Program-made: the position numbers and the translations under genes
In this document: positions 9,626-39,236 of the stretch, piece by piece
Layout: every line of letters begins with the position of its first letter
Numbering within the stretch: the first letter of the stretch is position 1
From: an uncultured Oscillospiraceae bacterium
GTDB lineage: Bacteria; Bacillota; Clostridia; Oscillospirales; Acutalibacteraceae
DNA length: 64,000 nucleotides
Assembly (NCBI GenBank): GCA_958366985.1
Contig: CATXDC010000004.1
Coordinates: forward strand, 118,187 to 182,186
Reading direction: 5' to 3'
The notes under the pieces: generated by a model
What the model was told of the DNA's origin: nothing
Databases searched by the model: none
The model's input: only the letters and a program-made list of their open reading frames with translations

Positions 9626-10087
9626 ATGGGCAACACGTTCAAAGCAGAACTTACTAACATGGTAATGGTTTACGATAAAAATACAAACCGTGCAGTTGTA
9701 CAGCAGAGGGTCAAATACTGGAAGGGCATAACCTTCCCCGGCGGTCATGTTGAAAAGGGAGAAAGCTTTATTGATTCCGCAAAAAGAGAAGTTTTAGAGG
9801 AAACAGGACTTAAAGTGGACAACCTGAAGCTTTGCGGTATTATAGACTGGTGCCACAGAAAAAGCGGCGAAAGGTACATGGTTATACTCTATAAAACCGA
9901 TACTTACAGCGGTGAGCTTATAGGTGAAACTGAGGAAGGCAAAGTTTTCTGGGCTGATATAGACGAAATACCCAACATGGAGCTTCCGCCTTATTTTGAT
10001 GATTACCTTAAAGTCTTTCTCAGCGATGACAAGCAAGAGTTTTTTGCCCCGTATGACAAGAAGAATACTGAAACAAAAATACTGTAA
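9626..10087 (+). CDS. Nudix hydrolase (MutT-like), copy 1 of 3 tandem paralogs
   Basis: Perfect Nudix box GX5EX7REUXEEXGU: GGHVEKGESFIDSAKREVLEETGLK. Confidence 0.85.
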   Translation: MGNTFKAELTNMVMVYDKNTNRAVVQQRVKYWKGITFPGGHVEKGESFIDSAKREVLEETGLKVDNLKLCGIIDWCHRKSGERYMVILYKTDTYSGELIGETEEGKVFWADIDEIPNMELPPYFDDYLKVFLSDDKQEFFAPYDKKNTETKIL

Positions 10088-10158
10088 GTAATCCTCACTT
10101 TTTAATAAAACGCACTACCACATTAATAAAAAATTCATCTTATTTGAGGTGTGAAAAT

Positions 10159-10620
10159 ATGAGTAATACGTTCAAAGCAGAACTTACCAATATGGTTATG
10201 GTTTACGATAAAAATACAAACCGTGCCGTTGTGCAGAACAGAATAAAATACTGCACAGGAATCTCCTTCCCCGGCGGTCATGTTGAAAAGGGAGAAAGCT
10301 TTGTCGATTCCGCCAAAAGAGAAGTTTTTGAAGAGACGGGACTCAAAATTGATAATCTAAAACTTTGCGGCATTGCCCAGTGGTGTCACAAGAAAAAAGG
10401 CAACCGATATATCATAATGCTCTATAAAACCGATACTTACAGCGGTGAGCTTATAGAAGAAACAGAGGAAGGCAAAGTTTTCTGGGCAGATATAGATAAA
10501 ATACAGAAAATGGAGCTTGCGCCGGATTTTGAGGATTTTCTCAAAATCTTTCTAAGCGAAAAAAATCAGGAATTTTTTGTCACGTATGACAAGAAGAATA
10601 CTGAAACAAAAATACTGTAA
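10159..10620 (+). CDS. Nudix hydrolase (MutT-like), copy 2
   Basis: Same Nudix box; start set at ATG 10159 (MSNTFKAEL) after the gaggtg RBS; the ORF track starts at 10144. Confidence 0.85.
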   Translation: MSNTFKAELTNMVMVYDKNTNRAVVQNRIKYCTGISFPGGHVEKGESFVDSAKREVFEETGLKIDNLKLCGIAQWCHKKKGNRYIIMLYKTDTYSGELIEETEEGKVFWADIDKIQKMELAPDFEDFLKIFLSEKNQEFFVTYDKKNTETKIL

Positions 10621-10689
10621 GTAATCCTCACTTTTTAACAAAACACACTACCACATTAATAAAATTCATCTTATTTGAGGTGTGAAAGT

Positions 10690-11151
10690 ATGAGCAATAC
10701 ATTCAAATCAGAATTTACCAACATGGTAATGGTTTACGATAAAAATACAAACCGTGCCGTTGTGCAGCAGAGGACAAAATACTGGAAAGGTATAAGTTTT
10801 CCCGGCGGACATGTTGAAAAAGGAGAAAGCTTTATTGATTCTGCAAAGAGAGAAGTTTTTGAAGAAACAGGACTTAAAATCGATAATCTAAAACTTTGTG
10901 GCATTGCCCAGTGGTGTCACAAGAAAAAAGGAAACAGATATATCGTAATGCTCTATAAAACCGATACTTACAGCGGTGAGCTTATAGAAGAAACTAGGGA
11001 AGGCAAAGTTTTCTGGGCAGATATAGATGAAATACCGAAAATGGAGCTTCCGCCTTATTTTGATGGTCACCTCGAAGTCTTTCTCGATGATGAAAAACAA
11101 GAATTTTTCGGCCTCCACGACAAAAAGAGCAAGGATATTTCAATTCTTTAA
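10690..11151 (+). CDS. Nudix hydrolase (MutT-like), copy 3
   Basis: Same Nudix box; start at ATG 10690 (MSNTFKSEF); about 531-bp repeat period including a conserved intergenic spacer. Confidence 0.85.
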   Translation: MSNTFKSEFTNMVMVYDKNTNRAVVQQRTKYWKGISFPGGHVEKGESFIDSAKREVFEETGLKIDNLKLCGIAQWCHKKKGNRYIVMLYKTDTYSGELIEETREGKVFWADIDEIPKMELPPYFDGHLEVFLDDEKQEFFGLHDKKSKDISIL

Positions 11152-33334: not shown

Positions 33335-33796
33335 TTATTTAGTGGGATAAATGAGCTTTTCTTCGCTCCAGTCTGCCAAAACCTTTTTCATTTCCTGAGC
33401 TTCTTTTTTAGCTCCTTCAAGGCTGTGTTCAAGATAGTTTCCGCACTCGGGAGCCGTTGCTCCGGGGATCTCACCCTCAAAATCTGCAATGAAATCAAAA
33501 GCTTCCTTAGTCAATTTAATGGCATCACTGTGTGAAAGTCCTCTTGTAAGGAAATAAAATCCTGTGCGGCAGCCCATAGGTCCAAAATAGATTATATTAT
33601 CCGAAAACTCGGAATTTCTCACAAAGGTTGCAAAAAGATGCTCCACAGTATGCATTGCAGCGTTTTCCATAAATGGCGGGATATTGGGACGTCTTGTTCT
33701 TATATCATATGTAATAACATCGCCGTCTTTACGGGAAATATACATTCCCCTTTGAAGAATGTCGTGGTCAATTGTAAAGCTTGCTATTTTTTCCAT
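33335..33796 (-). CDS. luxS: S-ribosylhomocysteine lyase
   Basis: LuxS metal-binding HxxEH motif (HTVEHLFA) and typical length of 153 aa. Confidence 0.9.
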   Translation of the reverse strand: MEKIASFTIDHDILQRGMYISRKDGDVITYDIRTRRPNIPPFMENAAMHTVEHLFATFVRNSEFSDNIIYFGPMGCRTGFYFLTRGLSHSDAIKLTKEAFDFIADFEGEIPGATAPECGNYLEHSLEGAKKEAQEMKKVLADWSEEKLIYPTK

Positions 33797-33811
33797 TTTC
33801 TTTTTCCTTTC

Positions 33812-34756
33812 TCAGCATACATCTATTCCCGTAAGGAATGAGCGGTGTCCGAAAACCTCGGAAGAGTCCGCCTTTCCCTCAAGGATATTCATAAATCCGG
33901 TAATCATCTGAGCTGCATCCTCTTTTGCCTCATCAAAAAGCTCATATACACTCTTATTCAGCTTAACAGATTTATCCGCCGGATAATACCATTCATTTTT
34001 TGCCCTGTTCATATAGTCATATTTGTCGTCAGCTCTTTCCTGAAGCATCATTGACGATACTCCCGGTCCGATAACAGGATAAAGAGGCATCTGTACGGCT
34101 CTTAGAAAATCGTTTCTCTTTTTGTTACCGCTGTTTATTATTCCCTGCATATAGCGAAAATCACGGAAAGCCTGTTCGAATTTCTTCTCATCGCACGGAC
34201 GTTTGAGGGTCACAGAAAAAGCAAAGGAATCCGCTCTTGCCATATTCTCTATAAGCTCCGGATCATCGGACAAAAGAGCTTTTGTTGAAAACTTAAGTGT
34301 ATTTTCAATATTCTTTTTCTCTTTAAGAAGAAGCATATCAATGTTGAATTCTATTCTGTTATGGAGCACAAAGGAATGATAAGTTATGTGCTCTCTTCTC
34401 TTTATGTCCTCCATAGCCCAGTAGACAAAAGGATGAACGCTTCTGTCAAGGGCATAATGACAGATAAAACCGCAAAAATATGAAATCACACAGTCACGGT
34501 CATAATTTTTGCCGTTTATGAGATACTCCGCCATTGCCGCAAAAAGCTTTGCAGGATCACTTCTATGTATCGCAGAACCTGTACCCATAAGACTTTTCCC
34601 GGGCATATTGGGAAGCAGTCTGTGGAAAAACAGGAAATCCGGTCCCTGAGTTCCGTAAATCACGGCACGCTCGTCTACTTTTACACCTTTTGCTCTCTGA
34701 CGGATTGTATCCATCATTTCATCAGAAAAAATATAGTGAGTTGAAAATGCAGGCAT
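33812..34756 (-). CDS. zinc-dependent phospholipase C / P1-nuclease-like family protein
   Basis: N-terminal FSTHYIF...GTQGPDFLFFH signature of the Zn_dep_PLPC family; assignment by motif only. Confidence 0.45.
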   Translation of the reverse strand: MPAFSTHYIFSDEMMDTIRQRAKGVKVDERAVIYGTQGPDFLFFHRLLPNMPGKSLMGTGSAIHRSDPAKLFAAMAEYLINGKNYDRDCVISYFCGFICHYALDRSVHPFVYWAMEDIKRREHITYHSFVLHNRIEFNIDMLLLKEKKNIENTLKFSTKALLSDDPELIENMARADSFAFSVTLKRPCDEKKFEQAFRDFRYMQGIINSGNKKRNDFLRAVQMPLYPVIGPGVSSMMLQERADDKYDYMNRAKNEWYYPADKSVKLNKSVYELFDEAKEDAAQMITGFMNILEGKADSSEVFGHRSFLTGIDVC

Positions 34757-36028: not shown

Positions 36029-36155
36029 ACAAAACGCCTCCTTTAACGGGACTTTATATTATATAATAACATTACGACGAATAAAAAACAACCGAAACAG
36101 AAGTTTAAGCATTTCGGTATCTGCAATAAAAGAAATTTTCGTTAAACCGCTGATA

Positions 36156-36184
36156 TTGACGATTGTACACATATGTAGTATATT
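36156..36184 (+). promoter_or_regulatory. sigma-A promoter TTGACG-17-TATATT for the RHH-led module; direct repeats TAGTATA x2 overlap and follow the -10
   Basis: Hexamers read directly from the sequence; TAGTATA occurs at 36177-36183 and 36190-36196, a candidate operator for the ribbon-helix-helix protein. Confidence 0.45.
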
Positions 36185-36225
36185 TTAATAGTATAACGTC
36201 ATATATGTCATGGAGGTGTTAAACC

Positions 36226-36429
36226 TTGGATGATAAAAAACTATACATTCCATCAAAGCTTTATAAAGGTGATACATCAGTTGTATCTGCAAGGCTTCCT
36301 AACAGCATGATTAAAGAAATAGACGCAATAGCTGAAAATACAGGCCGCAGCAGAAATGAAATAATTTCCATTTGTCTTGAATTTGCAATTAGTAATCTTC
36401 AAACTGAAAGCGACGAAAAAGAGGGATAG
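36226..36429 (+). CDS. ribbon-helix-helix (CopG/Arc-like) DNA-binding protein
   Basis: 67 aa; RHH signature ...VVSARLPNSMIKEIDAIAENTGRSRNEIISICLEFAI; likely TTG start at 36226 after a ggaggtg RBS. Confidence 0.6.
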   Translation: MDDKKLYIPSKLYKGDTSVVSARLPNSMIKEIDAIAENTGRSRNEIISICLEFAISNLQTESDEKEG

Positions 36430-36433
36430 CTTT

Positions 36434-37168
36434 ATGAAAAAGTCAGCTTTGATTATTGGGTTGACATATGGTGCGGCTGCATTAATTTACGGAATAATAT
36501 CATTAATGTTCTTTTTTGAAAAAACCACCGCTTTTTGGACAGGACTCTTAATAGTAGTTTTTTCCTGTGTCCTGAGCGCTGTAATTACTGTGTGTGTAAG
36601 CAAAAAACGTGATAATGCTTTTCCGCTTACAATATCAGTAAACCTTTTCTGCGGAATTTATGTATTTGCTGTAATTATAATCAATGTACTTATCGGCATA
36701 ATCTTTAAGGCAGGCACAGCGCCTTTGATTACTGCTCAAATAATATGCTTTGCTGTTTTTGCGGTTATAACAGCAGTTTTGCTTAAAGTAAAAAAACATA
36801 TTTCGGAGCACAGCATCATCGAAAATGATAAATCAAATGAGCTTAAAAAAATTATTTTTGAATGCGAAAAAATCAAGAATAAGCTTATAAAATTACCCGG
36901 TGAACAGCAGAAAAAAGCCTTGTCAGTAATTGACAGCATAATCGAGGAACTGCGGTTTTCAGATTTAAGTGTTTCCCCTGATATTTTGGAGATGGACGGC
37001 AAAATTTCATCTTTGATCGGTTTGCTCTCATCAGAAACCGATAATTTAATCGAAATACAGGCAGACGACATCACCGCTTTCGAAGAAATTGCAAATGATA
37101 TTAAAGCGCTTATCAAAGAAAGAAATGCACGTATTAAATTATTAATGAACATAAACAGCAAAATTTGA
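36434..37168 (+). CDS. integral membrane protein (4 TM) with C-terminal cytoplasmic coiled-coil domain; unknown function
   Basis: Start set at ATG 36434 (MKKSALIIG) after a gaggga RBS; four hydrophobic helices followed by a 120-aa charged helical tail. Confidence 0.55.
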   Translation: MKKSALIIGLTYGAAALIYGIISLMFFFEKTTAFWTGLLIVVFSCVLSAVITVCVSKKRDNAFPLTISVNLFCGIYVFAVIIINVLIGIIFKAGTAPLITAQIICFAVFAVITAVLLKVKKHISEHSIIENDKSNELKKIIFECEKIKNKLIKLPGEQQKKALSVIDSIIEELRFSDLSVSPDILEMDGKISSLIGLLSSETDNLIEIQADDITAFEEIANDIKALIKERNARIKLLMNINSKI

Positions 37169-37182
37169 GGAGGCAAAACCAA

Positions 37183-38493
37183 ATGGCAATAGTCGATGTA
37201 GTTAAGTATAACGGAGGTCCGGATGTATTCGCCTGGAAATATCCAAACGAAGAGCTGAGCACCTGGACACAGTTAATAGTTAACGAATCACAGGAAGCAA
37301 TTCTATTTAAGGGCGGAAAGGCCCTTGATGTATTTCAAAGCGGACGCCACACCCTTGAAACAGCAAATATACCGCTGCTGAATAATATCATAAATCTTCC
37401 CTTTGGCGGACGCTCACCGTTTACCGCTGAGGTATGGTACATAAATAAGATAAGTTCCCTTGATATAAAATGGGGGACTGCTTCACCTATTCAGCTTCAG
37501 GACCCCAAATATTCGATATTTGTGCCTGTAAGAGCTTTCGGCCAGTTTGGTATCAGTATTGAAAACTCAAAGCAGTTTCTGATTAAATTAGTCGGAACAC
37601 TTACTGAATTCAATAAAGCCAACATTGTAAAATATTTCAGAGGCTTATATCTTACAAAAGTAAAAGATGCAATTTCTTCATATCTTGTCAGCAAACAGAT
37701 AAGCATTCTGGAAATAAACGCATATCTTGAGGAAATTTCCGAGTACCTCAAGGAGAAAATGCAGCCGGTTCTTCAGGAGTACGGTATAAATCTTATTAAT
37801 TTCTATGTAAACGACATAAGTGTTCCCGAAGACGATACTGCCGTTATGAAGCTTAAAGACGCTCTTGCAAGAAAAGCCGAAATGAACATAATCGGCTACA
37901 ATTATCAGCAGGAACGCTCCTTCGACACTTTAGAGGAAGCTGCCAAAAATAACGGATCTGCAGGCGATATGATGGGTACAGGTCTCGGACTTGGTATGGG
38001 TATGGCAATGGGCGGAACAATGGGAAGCGAGTTTTCCTCTATTTCCAAAAACATCAACACCAAAGCTGAAGAAACCAAAACCTGCCCTTCATGCGGCGCA
38101 TCAATGCCCAAGGATAAGCGTTTTTGCTCAGACTGCGGATGCGATACTGCTGCACAAAAAGATGAGAATGAGGAAAAGGATAGCGGCACTATCAAATGCA
38201 GCAACTGTGGATTTGAGTATCCAAACACCGTTAAATTCTGCCCCCAATGCGGCGACAAATATAATCCCTGTCCACGCTGCGGAGCAGACAGGGCTGAAGG
38301 CGCTGAAGTATGTTCAAACTGCGGATATACCGAGCCAAAACCTTGTCCTCACTGCGGAAGCCCTCTTCCTGAAGGCGGAGCACGTTTTTGTCCTGAATGC
38401 GGTCAGTCTCTGGCTAAAAACTGTCCCACATGCAATGCACCTATTACAGGCAATCCAAAATTCTGCACACAGTGCGGAACTAAATTAATTTAA
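37183..38493 (+). CDS. SPFH/band-7-like (YdjI/virion-core-protein-like) domain fused to five tandem zinc-ribbon repeats
   Basis: N-terminal 260-aa SPFH-like region (MAIVDVVKYNGGPDVFAWKYP...) followed by a Gly/Met-rich linker (MMGTGLGLGMGMAMGGTMG). Five CxxCG-x8-10-CxxCG repeats follow: CPSCG..CSDCG, CSNCG..CPQCG, CPRCG..CSNCG, CPHCG..CPECG, CPTCN..CTQCG. RBS ggagg lies before ATG 37183. Confidence 0.6.
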   Translation: MAIVDVVKYNGGPDVFAWKYPNEELSTWTQLIVNESQEAILFKGGKALDVFQSGRHTLETANIPLLNNIINLPFGGRSPFTAEVWYINKISSLDIKWGTASPIQLQDPKYSIFVPVRAFGQFGISIENSKQFLIKLVGTLTEFNKANIVKYFRGLYLTKVKDAISSYLVSKQISILEINAYLEEISEYLKEKMQPVLQEYGINLINFYVNDISVPEDDTAVMKLKDALARKAEMNIIGYNYQQERSFDTLEEAAKNNGSAGDMMGTGLGLGMGMAMGGTMGSEFSSISKNINTKAEETKTCPSCGASMPKDKRFCSDCGCDTAAQKDENEEKDSGTIKCSNCGFEYPNTVKFCPQCGDKYNPCPRCGADRAEGAEVCSNCGYTEPKPCPHCGSPLPEGGARFCPECGQSLAKNCPTCNAPITGNPKFCTQCGTKLI

Positions 38494-38516
38494 TTTTAAT
38501 CTTAGGAGATATAATA

Positions 38517-39086
38517 ATGGATAATATTTCAGCAAATAAAGCAGTAAAAAAAACAAAAATAATCGCATGGATAGAAATAATCATAGGTATATTTCTAACT
38601 GCTTTCAATGGTTTTTTTGTTATTGTGGGAATAACACAGGCAAAAGACTCCACTGATGTAACTCTGATTGCTATATTCGGATGTCTTACGGCAGCAGGTA
38701 TTTTTCTTTTAAGATCAGCTCACCAGAGAAAAGATTTAATCAAGAAATTCAATGATTATTCAGCACGCCTGAAGAGTAATCCCTCAATGACACTACCAAA
38801 TTTAGCTTCGGAGGTCAATGAACCTATCACTGATTTGGCAAAAGATATAAGCAAAATGATTGTTTACGGCTTTTTCCCAAATTCATACATAGACGCAAAA
38901 ACAGGAAGGCTTATAACACCTGATTCAAACATGCAGACCACCTCTTTTACAAACCAGAATATACATACTGTTTCCGATAAACCCGAATACGTAACCGTAC
39001 AGTGCCAAAACTGCGGAGCAACTAATAAAATTGTCAAAGGTTCAGTAGGAGAATGTGAGTTCTGCGGTTCTCAAATTTCACAGTAA
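38517..39086 (+). CDS. membrane protein (2 TM) with C-terminal zinc ribbon
   Basis: Two N-terminal hydrophobic helices and a C-terminal CQNCG-x12-CEFCG zinc ribbon; aggag RBS. Confidence 0.55.
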   Translation: MDNISANKAVKKTKIIAWIEIIIGIFLTAFNGFFVIVGITQAKDSTDVTLIAIFGCLTAAGIFLLRSAHQRKDLIKKFNDYSARLKSNPSMTLPNLASEVNEPITDLAKDISKMIVYGFFPNSYIDAKTGRLITPDSNMQTTSFTNQNIHTVSDKPEYVTVQCQNCGATNKIVKGSVGECEFCGSQISQ

Positions 39087-39103
39087 AACTTACATATTAA
39101 AGC

Positions 39104-39140
39104 AAAACAGCGCATTTTTAGATGCGCTGTTTTTTGTTTA
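39104..39140 (+). terminator. rho-independent terminator closing the 4-gene plus-strand module
   Basis: aaaacagcgcatttttagatgcgctgtttttt. Confidence 0.7.
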
Positions 39141-39156
39141 TATTTTCTGTTATTTT

Positions 39157-39195
39157 ATAAAAAATACCGGAAAGCTTTACGCTTTCCGGCTATGT
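39157..39195 (-). terminator. rho-independent terminator downstream of the KH-domain gene on the minus strand
   Basis: ccggaaagctttacgctttccgg with a T-run on the minus strand. Confidence 0.6.
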
Positions 39196-39236
39196 CCTCT
39201 TTTTTGCTGTTAAAACGCAAACTTATTAAAGAATAA

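Follow-up and report, generated by a model that had tools for sequence, protein, structure and literature searches.

What does an SPFH protein do when its C-terminal tail carries five zinc ribbons, and with which proteins does it act? This question is raised by a forward-strand gene (37183..38493, hereafter the SPFH gene) in a 64-kb stretch of DNA from an uncultured Oscillospiraceae bacterium (contig CATXDC010000004.1), the whole of which is called the window below. The gene product is a soluble SPFH protein and is linked in an operon to two integral membrane proteins, here named partner A and partner B. By analogy with the SamGHI proteins of Bacillus subtilis, it may scaffold or regulate, as the soluble subunit, a self-contained complex beneath the membrane that works independently of PspA, a tentative reading to which a probability of about 0.45 is given.

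The SPFH protein and its zinc-ribbon tail

The gene and its two C-terminal elements are placed as follows.

37183..38493, forward strand: SPFH gene, 436 aa, with a Band_7_1 domain, a Gly/Met stretch and five zinc ribbons, and without a transmembrane (TM) segment
37972..38013, forward strand: codons of the Gly/Met motif, residues 264-277, MGxGxGxGMGxxxG, near-invariant in homologues
38083..38478, forward strand: codons of the five-ribbon tail, C301 to G432, with ten CxxC motifs and matches to the Pfam families Zn_Ribbon_1 and DZR

The translation runs uninterrupted for 436 aa from the ATG at 37183 to the stop codon at 38491-38493. The longest open reading frame (ORF) of the gene opens further upstream at a TTG (37165); a GAGGAGG ribosome-binding site is found 5' of the ATG, and the MAIV start is common to the homologues, M1 and A2 being invariant in the alignment of 17 homologues (66-86% identity) used throughout.

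The first-pass annotation described the N-terminal domain as an SPFH domain of the YdjI type, and this is borne out by both profile search and structure prediction. The Pfam family Band_7_1 (PF13421) matches residues 18-223 with an E-value of 5.6e-48 and 163.8 bits against a cut-off of 24. In the AlphaFold2 model, core residues 100-230 reach values of 65-85 in the predicted local distance difference test (pLDDT), and a single short helix (residues 219-236) comes after the SPFH domain. The top 50 Foldseek matches of this model in the PDB all belong to the SPFH superfamily and include stomatin (the best match, E 3.8e-10), HflK/C, prohibitin, erlin, flotillin, QmcA and major vault protein, with template modelling scores (TM-scores) of 0.70-0.75 against isolated SPFH domains for a model of moderate confidence. 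A sequence-profile search of the PDB with the family returned zinc-ribbon chains only and otherwise no solved relative. Pfam gave no flotillin-domain match in the protein, and YdjI is not among the 150 nearest family representatives. Assignment of the protein to the YdjI/SamI branch of the SPFH superfamily (Band_7_1) is very probably correct. No TM segment was detected: the maximum Kyte-Doolittle hydropathy over 19 residues is 0.85 and the profile nowhere reaches 1.6, indicating that this SPFH protein is soluble.

The hydropathy maximum, still under the TM level, falls on the Gly/Met stretch, which lies N-terminal to the ribbons and contains GLGLGMGMAMGG at residues 267-278. M264, G265, G267, G269, G271, M272, G273 and G277 are invariant in the 17 homologues. 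The stretch is modelled as disordered (pLDDT below 50). Its near-invariance at such overall identities makes it too conserved for a passive spacer; possible roles are a contact resembling a glycine zipper or an element that grazes the membrane.

The tail had been described as five tandem CxxCG ribbons with 20 cysteines. The five ribbons following the Gly/Met stretch stand, but the description of their number of cysteines and of their regularity has to be amended. The ten CxxC knuckles, at residues 301, 315, 339, 353, 363, 377, 388, 403, 414 and 428, form five pairs, each pair making one ribbon with 9-10 intervening residues. Zn_Ribbon_1 (PF13240) matches in five stretches with 81.9 bits against a cut-off of 25, and DZR (PF12773) with 78.4 bits against 27.3. 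There are 21 cysteines in the tail, the extra one being C320, and the first knuckle of ribbon 5 reads CPTCN instead of CxxCG. Moreover, ribbon 1 is set apart from ribbons 2-5 by a variable, acidic spacer of 20 residues, ribbons 2-5 being joined by 6-7 residues. All 20 ribbon cysteines are invariant in the 17 homologues, indicating that the pattern is not due to chance, and the five ribbons are predicted to be zinc-binding modules.

Proteins of this kind are numerous. More than 4,600 database proteins match at E <=1e-5 in a word-indexed protein search, and 117 of the 120 best-listed homologues show 100% query coverage, most of them being 429-446 aa long and 66-98% identical. They are catalogued under names such as 'SPFH domain-containing protein', 'Membrane protease subunit, stomatin/prohibitin family, contains C-terminal Zn-ribbon domain' and 'putative virion core protein (lumpy skin disease virus)'. 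When one genome per species was scanned, relatives appeared in at least 499 species; the best 80 of these loci, with near-full-length copies, were used for all locus comparisons (81 loci including the window). Represented among these loci are Clostridia, Erysipelotrichia and Tissierellia, besides Methanimicrococcus stummii, a Synergistaceae metagenome-assembled genome (MAG) and 'Deltaproteobacteria' MAGs. In the M. stummii chromosome, a full-length five-ribbon copy, 60% identical, is followed by a partner-A homologue (L075:6001-8003). This archaeal copy implies that the module has been passed from one domain of life to another. The plasmid and phage collections yielded distant relatives only (below 40% identity); beside the SPFH relative on a Butyrivibrio plasmid neither partner A nor partner B is annotated, and a PHROGs search with the SPFH protein matched over the ribbons only.

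An SPFH domain, a Gly-rich linker and a small C-terminal module are found throughout the Band_7_1 family, of which the window protein is a full member. At E <=1e-3, an exhaustive HMMER search with the N-terminal domain alone retrieved 3,493 representatives (clusters at 50% identity), of which 580 remained at E <=1e-30. All 118 nearest full-length representatives carry Band_7_1, together with zinc ribbons in 68, SHOCT in 20 and GYF_2 in 10; SHOCT was reported to occur most often on PF13421 (PMC3581485). Among 125 representatives of at least 300 aa, the tail contains no CxxC motif in 50, two in 3, four in 30, six in 23, eight in 6 and ten in 4. For instance, the representative P0171 has an N-terminal domain 70% identical to that of the window protein and a tail made of the ribbon 4-5 pair only, and the CGDxYNPCPxCG junction of ribbons 2-3 is kept in four-ribbon members. 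The window protein thus stands at the upper end of a modular and continuous series of tails with one to five ribbons; this is quantitative variation and no new principle. The suggestion that the gene encodes a new domain architecture does not hold against this series, the near-full-length five-ribbon copies in the 80 best loci and a database name that already cites the C-terminal Zn-ribbon domain. The five-ribbon architecture is not rare; it is found widely in anaerobes from gut and soil and has already been catalogued there.

The conserved cassette and its membrane partners

In the window, the SPFH gene is the third of four forward-strand genes, in the order RHH, partner A, SPFH and partner B, separated by gaps of 4, 14 and 23 nt. 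The other elements of this cassette are the following.

36156..36184, forward strand: promoter-like site TTGACG-17-TATATT, from a consensus scan, 10/12 matches
36226..36429, forward strand: RHH gene, encoding a CopG-type ribbon-helix-helix (RHH) protein of 67 aa, with a TTG start and a GGAGGTG ribosome-binding site
36434..37168, forward strand: partner A, 244 aa, with four TM segments and a cytoplasmic helical domain (this topology is predicted)
38517..39086, forward strand: partner B, 189 aa, with a TM hairpin, a winged-helix-like domain, a disordered spacer and a C-terminal CxxC...CxxC ribbon
39104..39133, forward strand: bidirectional terminator-like hairpin, a 13-pair stem followed by a T run, which ends the cassette

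Clustering of ORFs across the 81 loci placed the partner A family next to the SPFH gene in 77 and the partner B family in 73. The order SPFH-A-B on one strand is found in 64 of them, with median gaps of 12 and 3 nt, and partner B commonly occurs as two to four tandem paralogues. The clade of the window has an extra, upstream partner A paralogue, which is homologous to the downstream type (hhalign 99.65%, E 4e-25); in the window itself the downstream copy has been lost. Downstream of a three-ribbon relative, too, there is a partner-A homologue (hhalign 92.8%, E 3.8e-7). The wider family does not always have partner A, however: the gene downstream of a SHOCT-tailed relative is no homologue of it (hhalign probability 0.3%). 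In the clade of the window, the operon runs on into further genes for small zinc-ribbon proteins (L002, 9276-10868, and equivalent positions in L004-L009) that are absent from the window; one of these proteins has a ribbon at its N-terminus together with a TM segment, a PASTA domain and a pair of Lipoprotein_Ltp repeats (E 3e-49).

No Pfam family, name or solved relative was found for either partner family. The hydropathy profile of partner A has four segments, and its helical domain contains a conserved 'lrFSD' motif and a near-invariant R230 ('RN'). No Pfam family was assigned in 40 members, isolated weak matches to holin, SLATT and SieB occurring in 1-2 of the 40; its homologues are unnamed, and a PDB sequence search gave nothing significant. 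Partner B was modelled by AlphaFold2 with a pLDDT of 82.5 as a TM hairpin, a small helix/strand domain (residues 93-133), a disordered spacer and a four-stranded zinc ribbon. It has two hydrophobic segments, and C163, C166, C180 and C183 are invariant in 40 members; all homologues are named 'hypothetical', and no Pfam family was found. A fold search with partner B returned nothing significant (best E 0.29), and PDB sequence matches were to an Rpb12-like ribbon (E 0.003) and a PCI winged helix (E 0.07). Local matches to Lrp, MarR and PCI, all non-significant, offer the suggestion that its middle domain is winged-helix-like.

The RHH protein matches Pfam RHH_1 with E 4.5e-6 and 26.9 bits against a cut-off of 20.5. 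Its gene is located upstream in 11 of the 80 related loci, all of the window's own clade, and the CopG-type protein probably regulates the cassette in this clade. Promoter-like sites in the region are as many as expected from shuffled sequence, so that the site at 36156..36184 is plausible only. The short palindromes ACATATGT and CATATATG in 36165-36215, within the 36029-36225 spacer, overlap this site 5' of the RHH gene and are candidate operators for the CopG-type protein.

The statement that no pspA is nearby was upheld over a wider set of loci. No PspA-like ORF is present in the window, and a phmmer search with E. coli PspA gave no match at E up to 10, either there or in the ORFs of the 80 related loci. 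Likewise, PspA_IM30 is absent from the 20 families seen in at least two of 130 flanking proteins.

The proposed complex and its alternatives

In B. subtilis, YdjI (SamI) consists of an SPFH domain, followed by a linker of low complexity and, at the C-terminus, a zinc finger (PMC8581546; bioRxiv 10.64898/2026.02.06.704340; PMC11237479). It is soluble, and both its membrane foci and the recruitment of PspA need the membrane proteins YdjG and YdjH (PMC8581546). Ravi et al. described YdjI as band-7 with a C-terminal zinc ribbon (ZnR), YdjG as two ZnRs with a YpeB/NTF2-like domain and a TM segment, and YdjH as TPM with a coiled coil (PMC11237479). The ribbon of YdjG was also discussed as possibly DNA-binding (PMC9239133). 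The proteins were renamed SamGHI in a 2026 preprint according to which SamI restrains SamGH signalling, PspA is dispensable there and the loss of SamI alters transcription globally (bioRxiv 10.64898/2026.02.06.704340).

Compared by published description, the window protein and YdjI/SamI share a soluble layout of SPFH domain, low-complexity Gly-rich region and C-terminal ribbon, and in both cases the operon also encodes a pair of integral membrane proteins, of which one has zinc ribbons. The membrane localisation of YdjI/SamI depends on its partners and its role is partly PspA-independent (bioRxiv 10.64898/2026.02.06.704340). The two nevertheless differ in that YdjI has one ribbon and the window protein five, that pspA belongs to the Bacillus operon whereas neither the window operon nor the window contains it, and that the SPFH gene is first in most related loci but last in Bacillus. 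A further precedent is provided by HflK/C-FtsH, QmcA-YbbJ, stomatin, flotillin, prohibitin and erlin, which share the SPFH fold and, as membrane-anchored cages, show that an SPFH oligomer can enclose or regulate membrane-protein clients. Unlike these, the window protein lacks an N-terminal TM or hairpin anchor, has one short helix instead of a long wall-forming coiled coil, has no NfeD or FtsH partner, and ends in zinc ribbons rather than in a cap-forming C-terminus.

On the analogy with SamGHI and the solved SPFH cages, the SPFH domains would oligomerise beneath the membrane, where the two membrane partners would recruit the oligomer. The flexible five-ribbon tail may then serve as a multivalent docking arm for the cytoplasmic domains of the partners, and the scaffold would restrain or organise partner activity during envelope stress. 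Since each partner has an even number of TM segments and a basic N-terminus, its soluble domain should face the cytoplasm, where the SPFH protein is. The earlier proposal of a PspA-independent sub-membrane module is a reasonable reading.

Several points weigh against it. The partners are not homologues of YdjG and YdjH, no TPM, NTF2 or consistent Pfam match being found in 40 members of each, and the analogy with SamGHI is consequently architectural only. The full-length AlphaFold2 model of the SPFH protein is weak, its mean pLDDT being 59, and modelling is poor for residues 1-30 and 58-82. The cytoplasmic topology of the partners is deduced from TM counts and basic N-termini, and every functional step, namely interaction, oligomerisation and localisation, is taken over by analogy.

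Of the other explanations, the one that survives best, though unlikely, is that the ribbons bind nucleic acid. Acting jointly with the winged-helix-like domain of partner B, they would hold DNA or RNA at the membrane or keep a regulator sequestered, which would make a switch from membrane stress to gene expression. The tail profile weakly matches archaeal ribosome-associated Zn-ribbon RNA-binding proteins (E ~1e-3), and the partner B ribbon resembles those of Rpb12/RpoP; such PDB matches are, however, no better than expected of any CxxC ribbon. The Lrp, MarR and PCI matches in partner B would fit, but are below significance as noted above. The possible DNA binding of the YdjG ribbon (PMC9239133) and the global transcriptional change on SamI loss (bioRxiv 10.64898/2026.02.06.704340) point in the same direction. 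Nevertheless, the tail is not basic, its net charge being about 0 and its isoelectric point 5.9-8.8 across the 17 homologues, and relatives swap the ribbons for SHOCT or GYF_2, indicating a generic adaptor role. The near-neutral tail and this replacement favour protein docking over nucleic-acid binding.

Two further possibilities are improbable to a similar degree. In one, the complex would be a PspA-free envelope-surveillance device of anaerobic Firmicutes in which the 20 zinc-bound cysteines per subunit act as a redox or metal switch. Oxidation or loss of zinc would unfold the ribbon array and free the membrane partners, one of them winged-helix-like, to signal. The invariance of the cysteines and the occurrence of the five-ribbon form mainly in anaerobes (Clostridia, a methanogen, Synergistaceae) are compatible with such a switch. 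In the other, the genes would be a mobile cassette directed against phages or serving abortive infection, in which an SPFH oligomer keeps two small membrane effectors inactive until infection. The three-gene core does occur in unrelated genomic contexts and has spread to the archaeon Methanimicrococcus (L075), Synergistaceae and 'Deltaproteobacteria' MAGs. However, no PADLOC-DB 2.0 model matches, with no hit for the SPFH protein and values in the noise for the partners (E 0.017-0.03), the flanks are not enriched in defence genes, and the plasmid and phage collections hold distant relatives only. The holin, SLATT and SieB matches of partner A would suit membrane effectors, but holin-type matches confined to 1-2 of 40 members are typical of hydrophobic segments. 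Sequence conservation is also high, with 66-98% identity in the best-listed homologues across many genera, unlike in the known fast-evolving conflict systems.

Very little speaks for the view that YdjI and YdjG were fused in evolution, their ribbons expanded to five and one polypeptide replacing two. An SPFH domain and zinc ribbons do co-occur in the window protein, and YdjG does carry zinc ribbons (PMC9239133; PMC11237479). However, YdjI itself has a linker and a C-terminal zinc finger (PMC8581546; PMC11237479), so that the linker-plus-ribbon tail is the family's own feature and was not taken from YdjG. Ribbons in 68 of the 118 nearest representatives, in a series from one to five, and the ribbon 4-5 pair standing alone in P0171 argue in the same sense. 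The window protein has neither the TM segment of YdjG nor a Pfam NTF2-like match, and a separate membrane Zn-ribbon protein, partner B, is kept downstream in 73 of the 80 related loci and encoded in the window at 38517-39086; nothing has been absorbed. The claim of the first-pass annotation that the functions of YdjI and YdjG are fused here was therefore abandoned. Finally, an assembly or frameshift artefact joining two genes, which that annotation had named as a refuting outcome, can be set aside with near certainty, since an identical 436-aa gene is called in an independent public assembly (Logan ERR14026137), the exact protein is present in three sources (NCBI, ENA and Logan), and the homologues in all 80 loci kept are near-full-length proteins in one frame.

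Genomic setting and significance

Beyond the core, the flanks of the cassette are unrelated between loci, with 171 Pfam families among the 130 flanking proteins. At 36029-39236 of the window, the forward-strand cassette interrupts the normally contiguous reverse-strand order rpsP - KH protein - rimM - trmD, and the same interrupted arrangement is seen in L001 (91% identical). A terminator-like hairpin follows the KH gene (39190-39166, reverse strand), and divergent promoter-like sites occupy the spacer before rimM (36156-36184, forward; 36211-36182, reverse). Direct or inverted repeats longer than expected by chance were not found on either side of the cassette. Directly downstream of trmD, on the reverse strand, are luxS (LuxS, E 1.3e-50) and a zinc-dependent phospholipase C-like gene (33335-34756). 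Elsewhere in the window, at 9626-11151 on the forward strand, three tandem paralogues of 153-158 aa have near-identical N-termini (MxNTFKAELTNMVMVYDKNTNRAVVQ), which looks like a local triplication.

Literature searches gave no study of the five-ribbon SPFH subfamily, nor a description of a conserved three-gene module that lacks PspA and includes two families of unannotated membrane partners. YdjI/SamI, the only studied member of the branch, has been understood as a recruiter of PspA, and recent work suggests that its main job is to restrain its membrane partners. A different but equally conserved pair of membrane partners, with no neighbouring pspA, supports the view that SPFH proteins of the YdjI type are general regulators of small membrane-protein complexes and not accessories of PspA. 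In addition, the two unannotated partner families are defined here for the SamGHI field and provide a comparative handle on the function of YdjI-type SPFH proteins.

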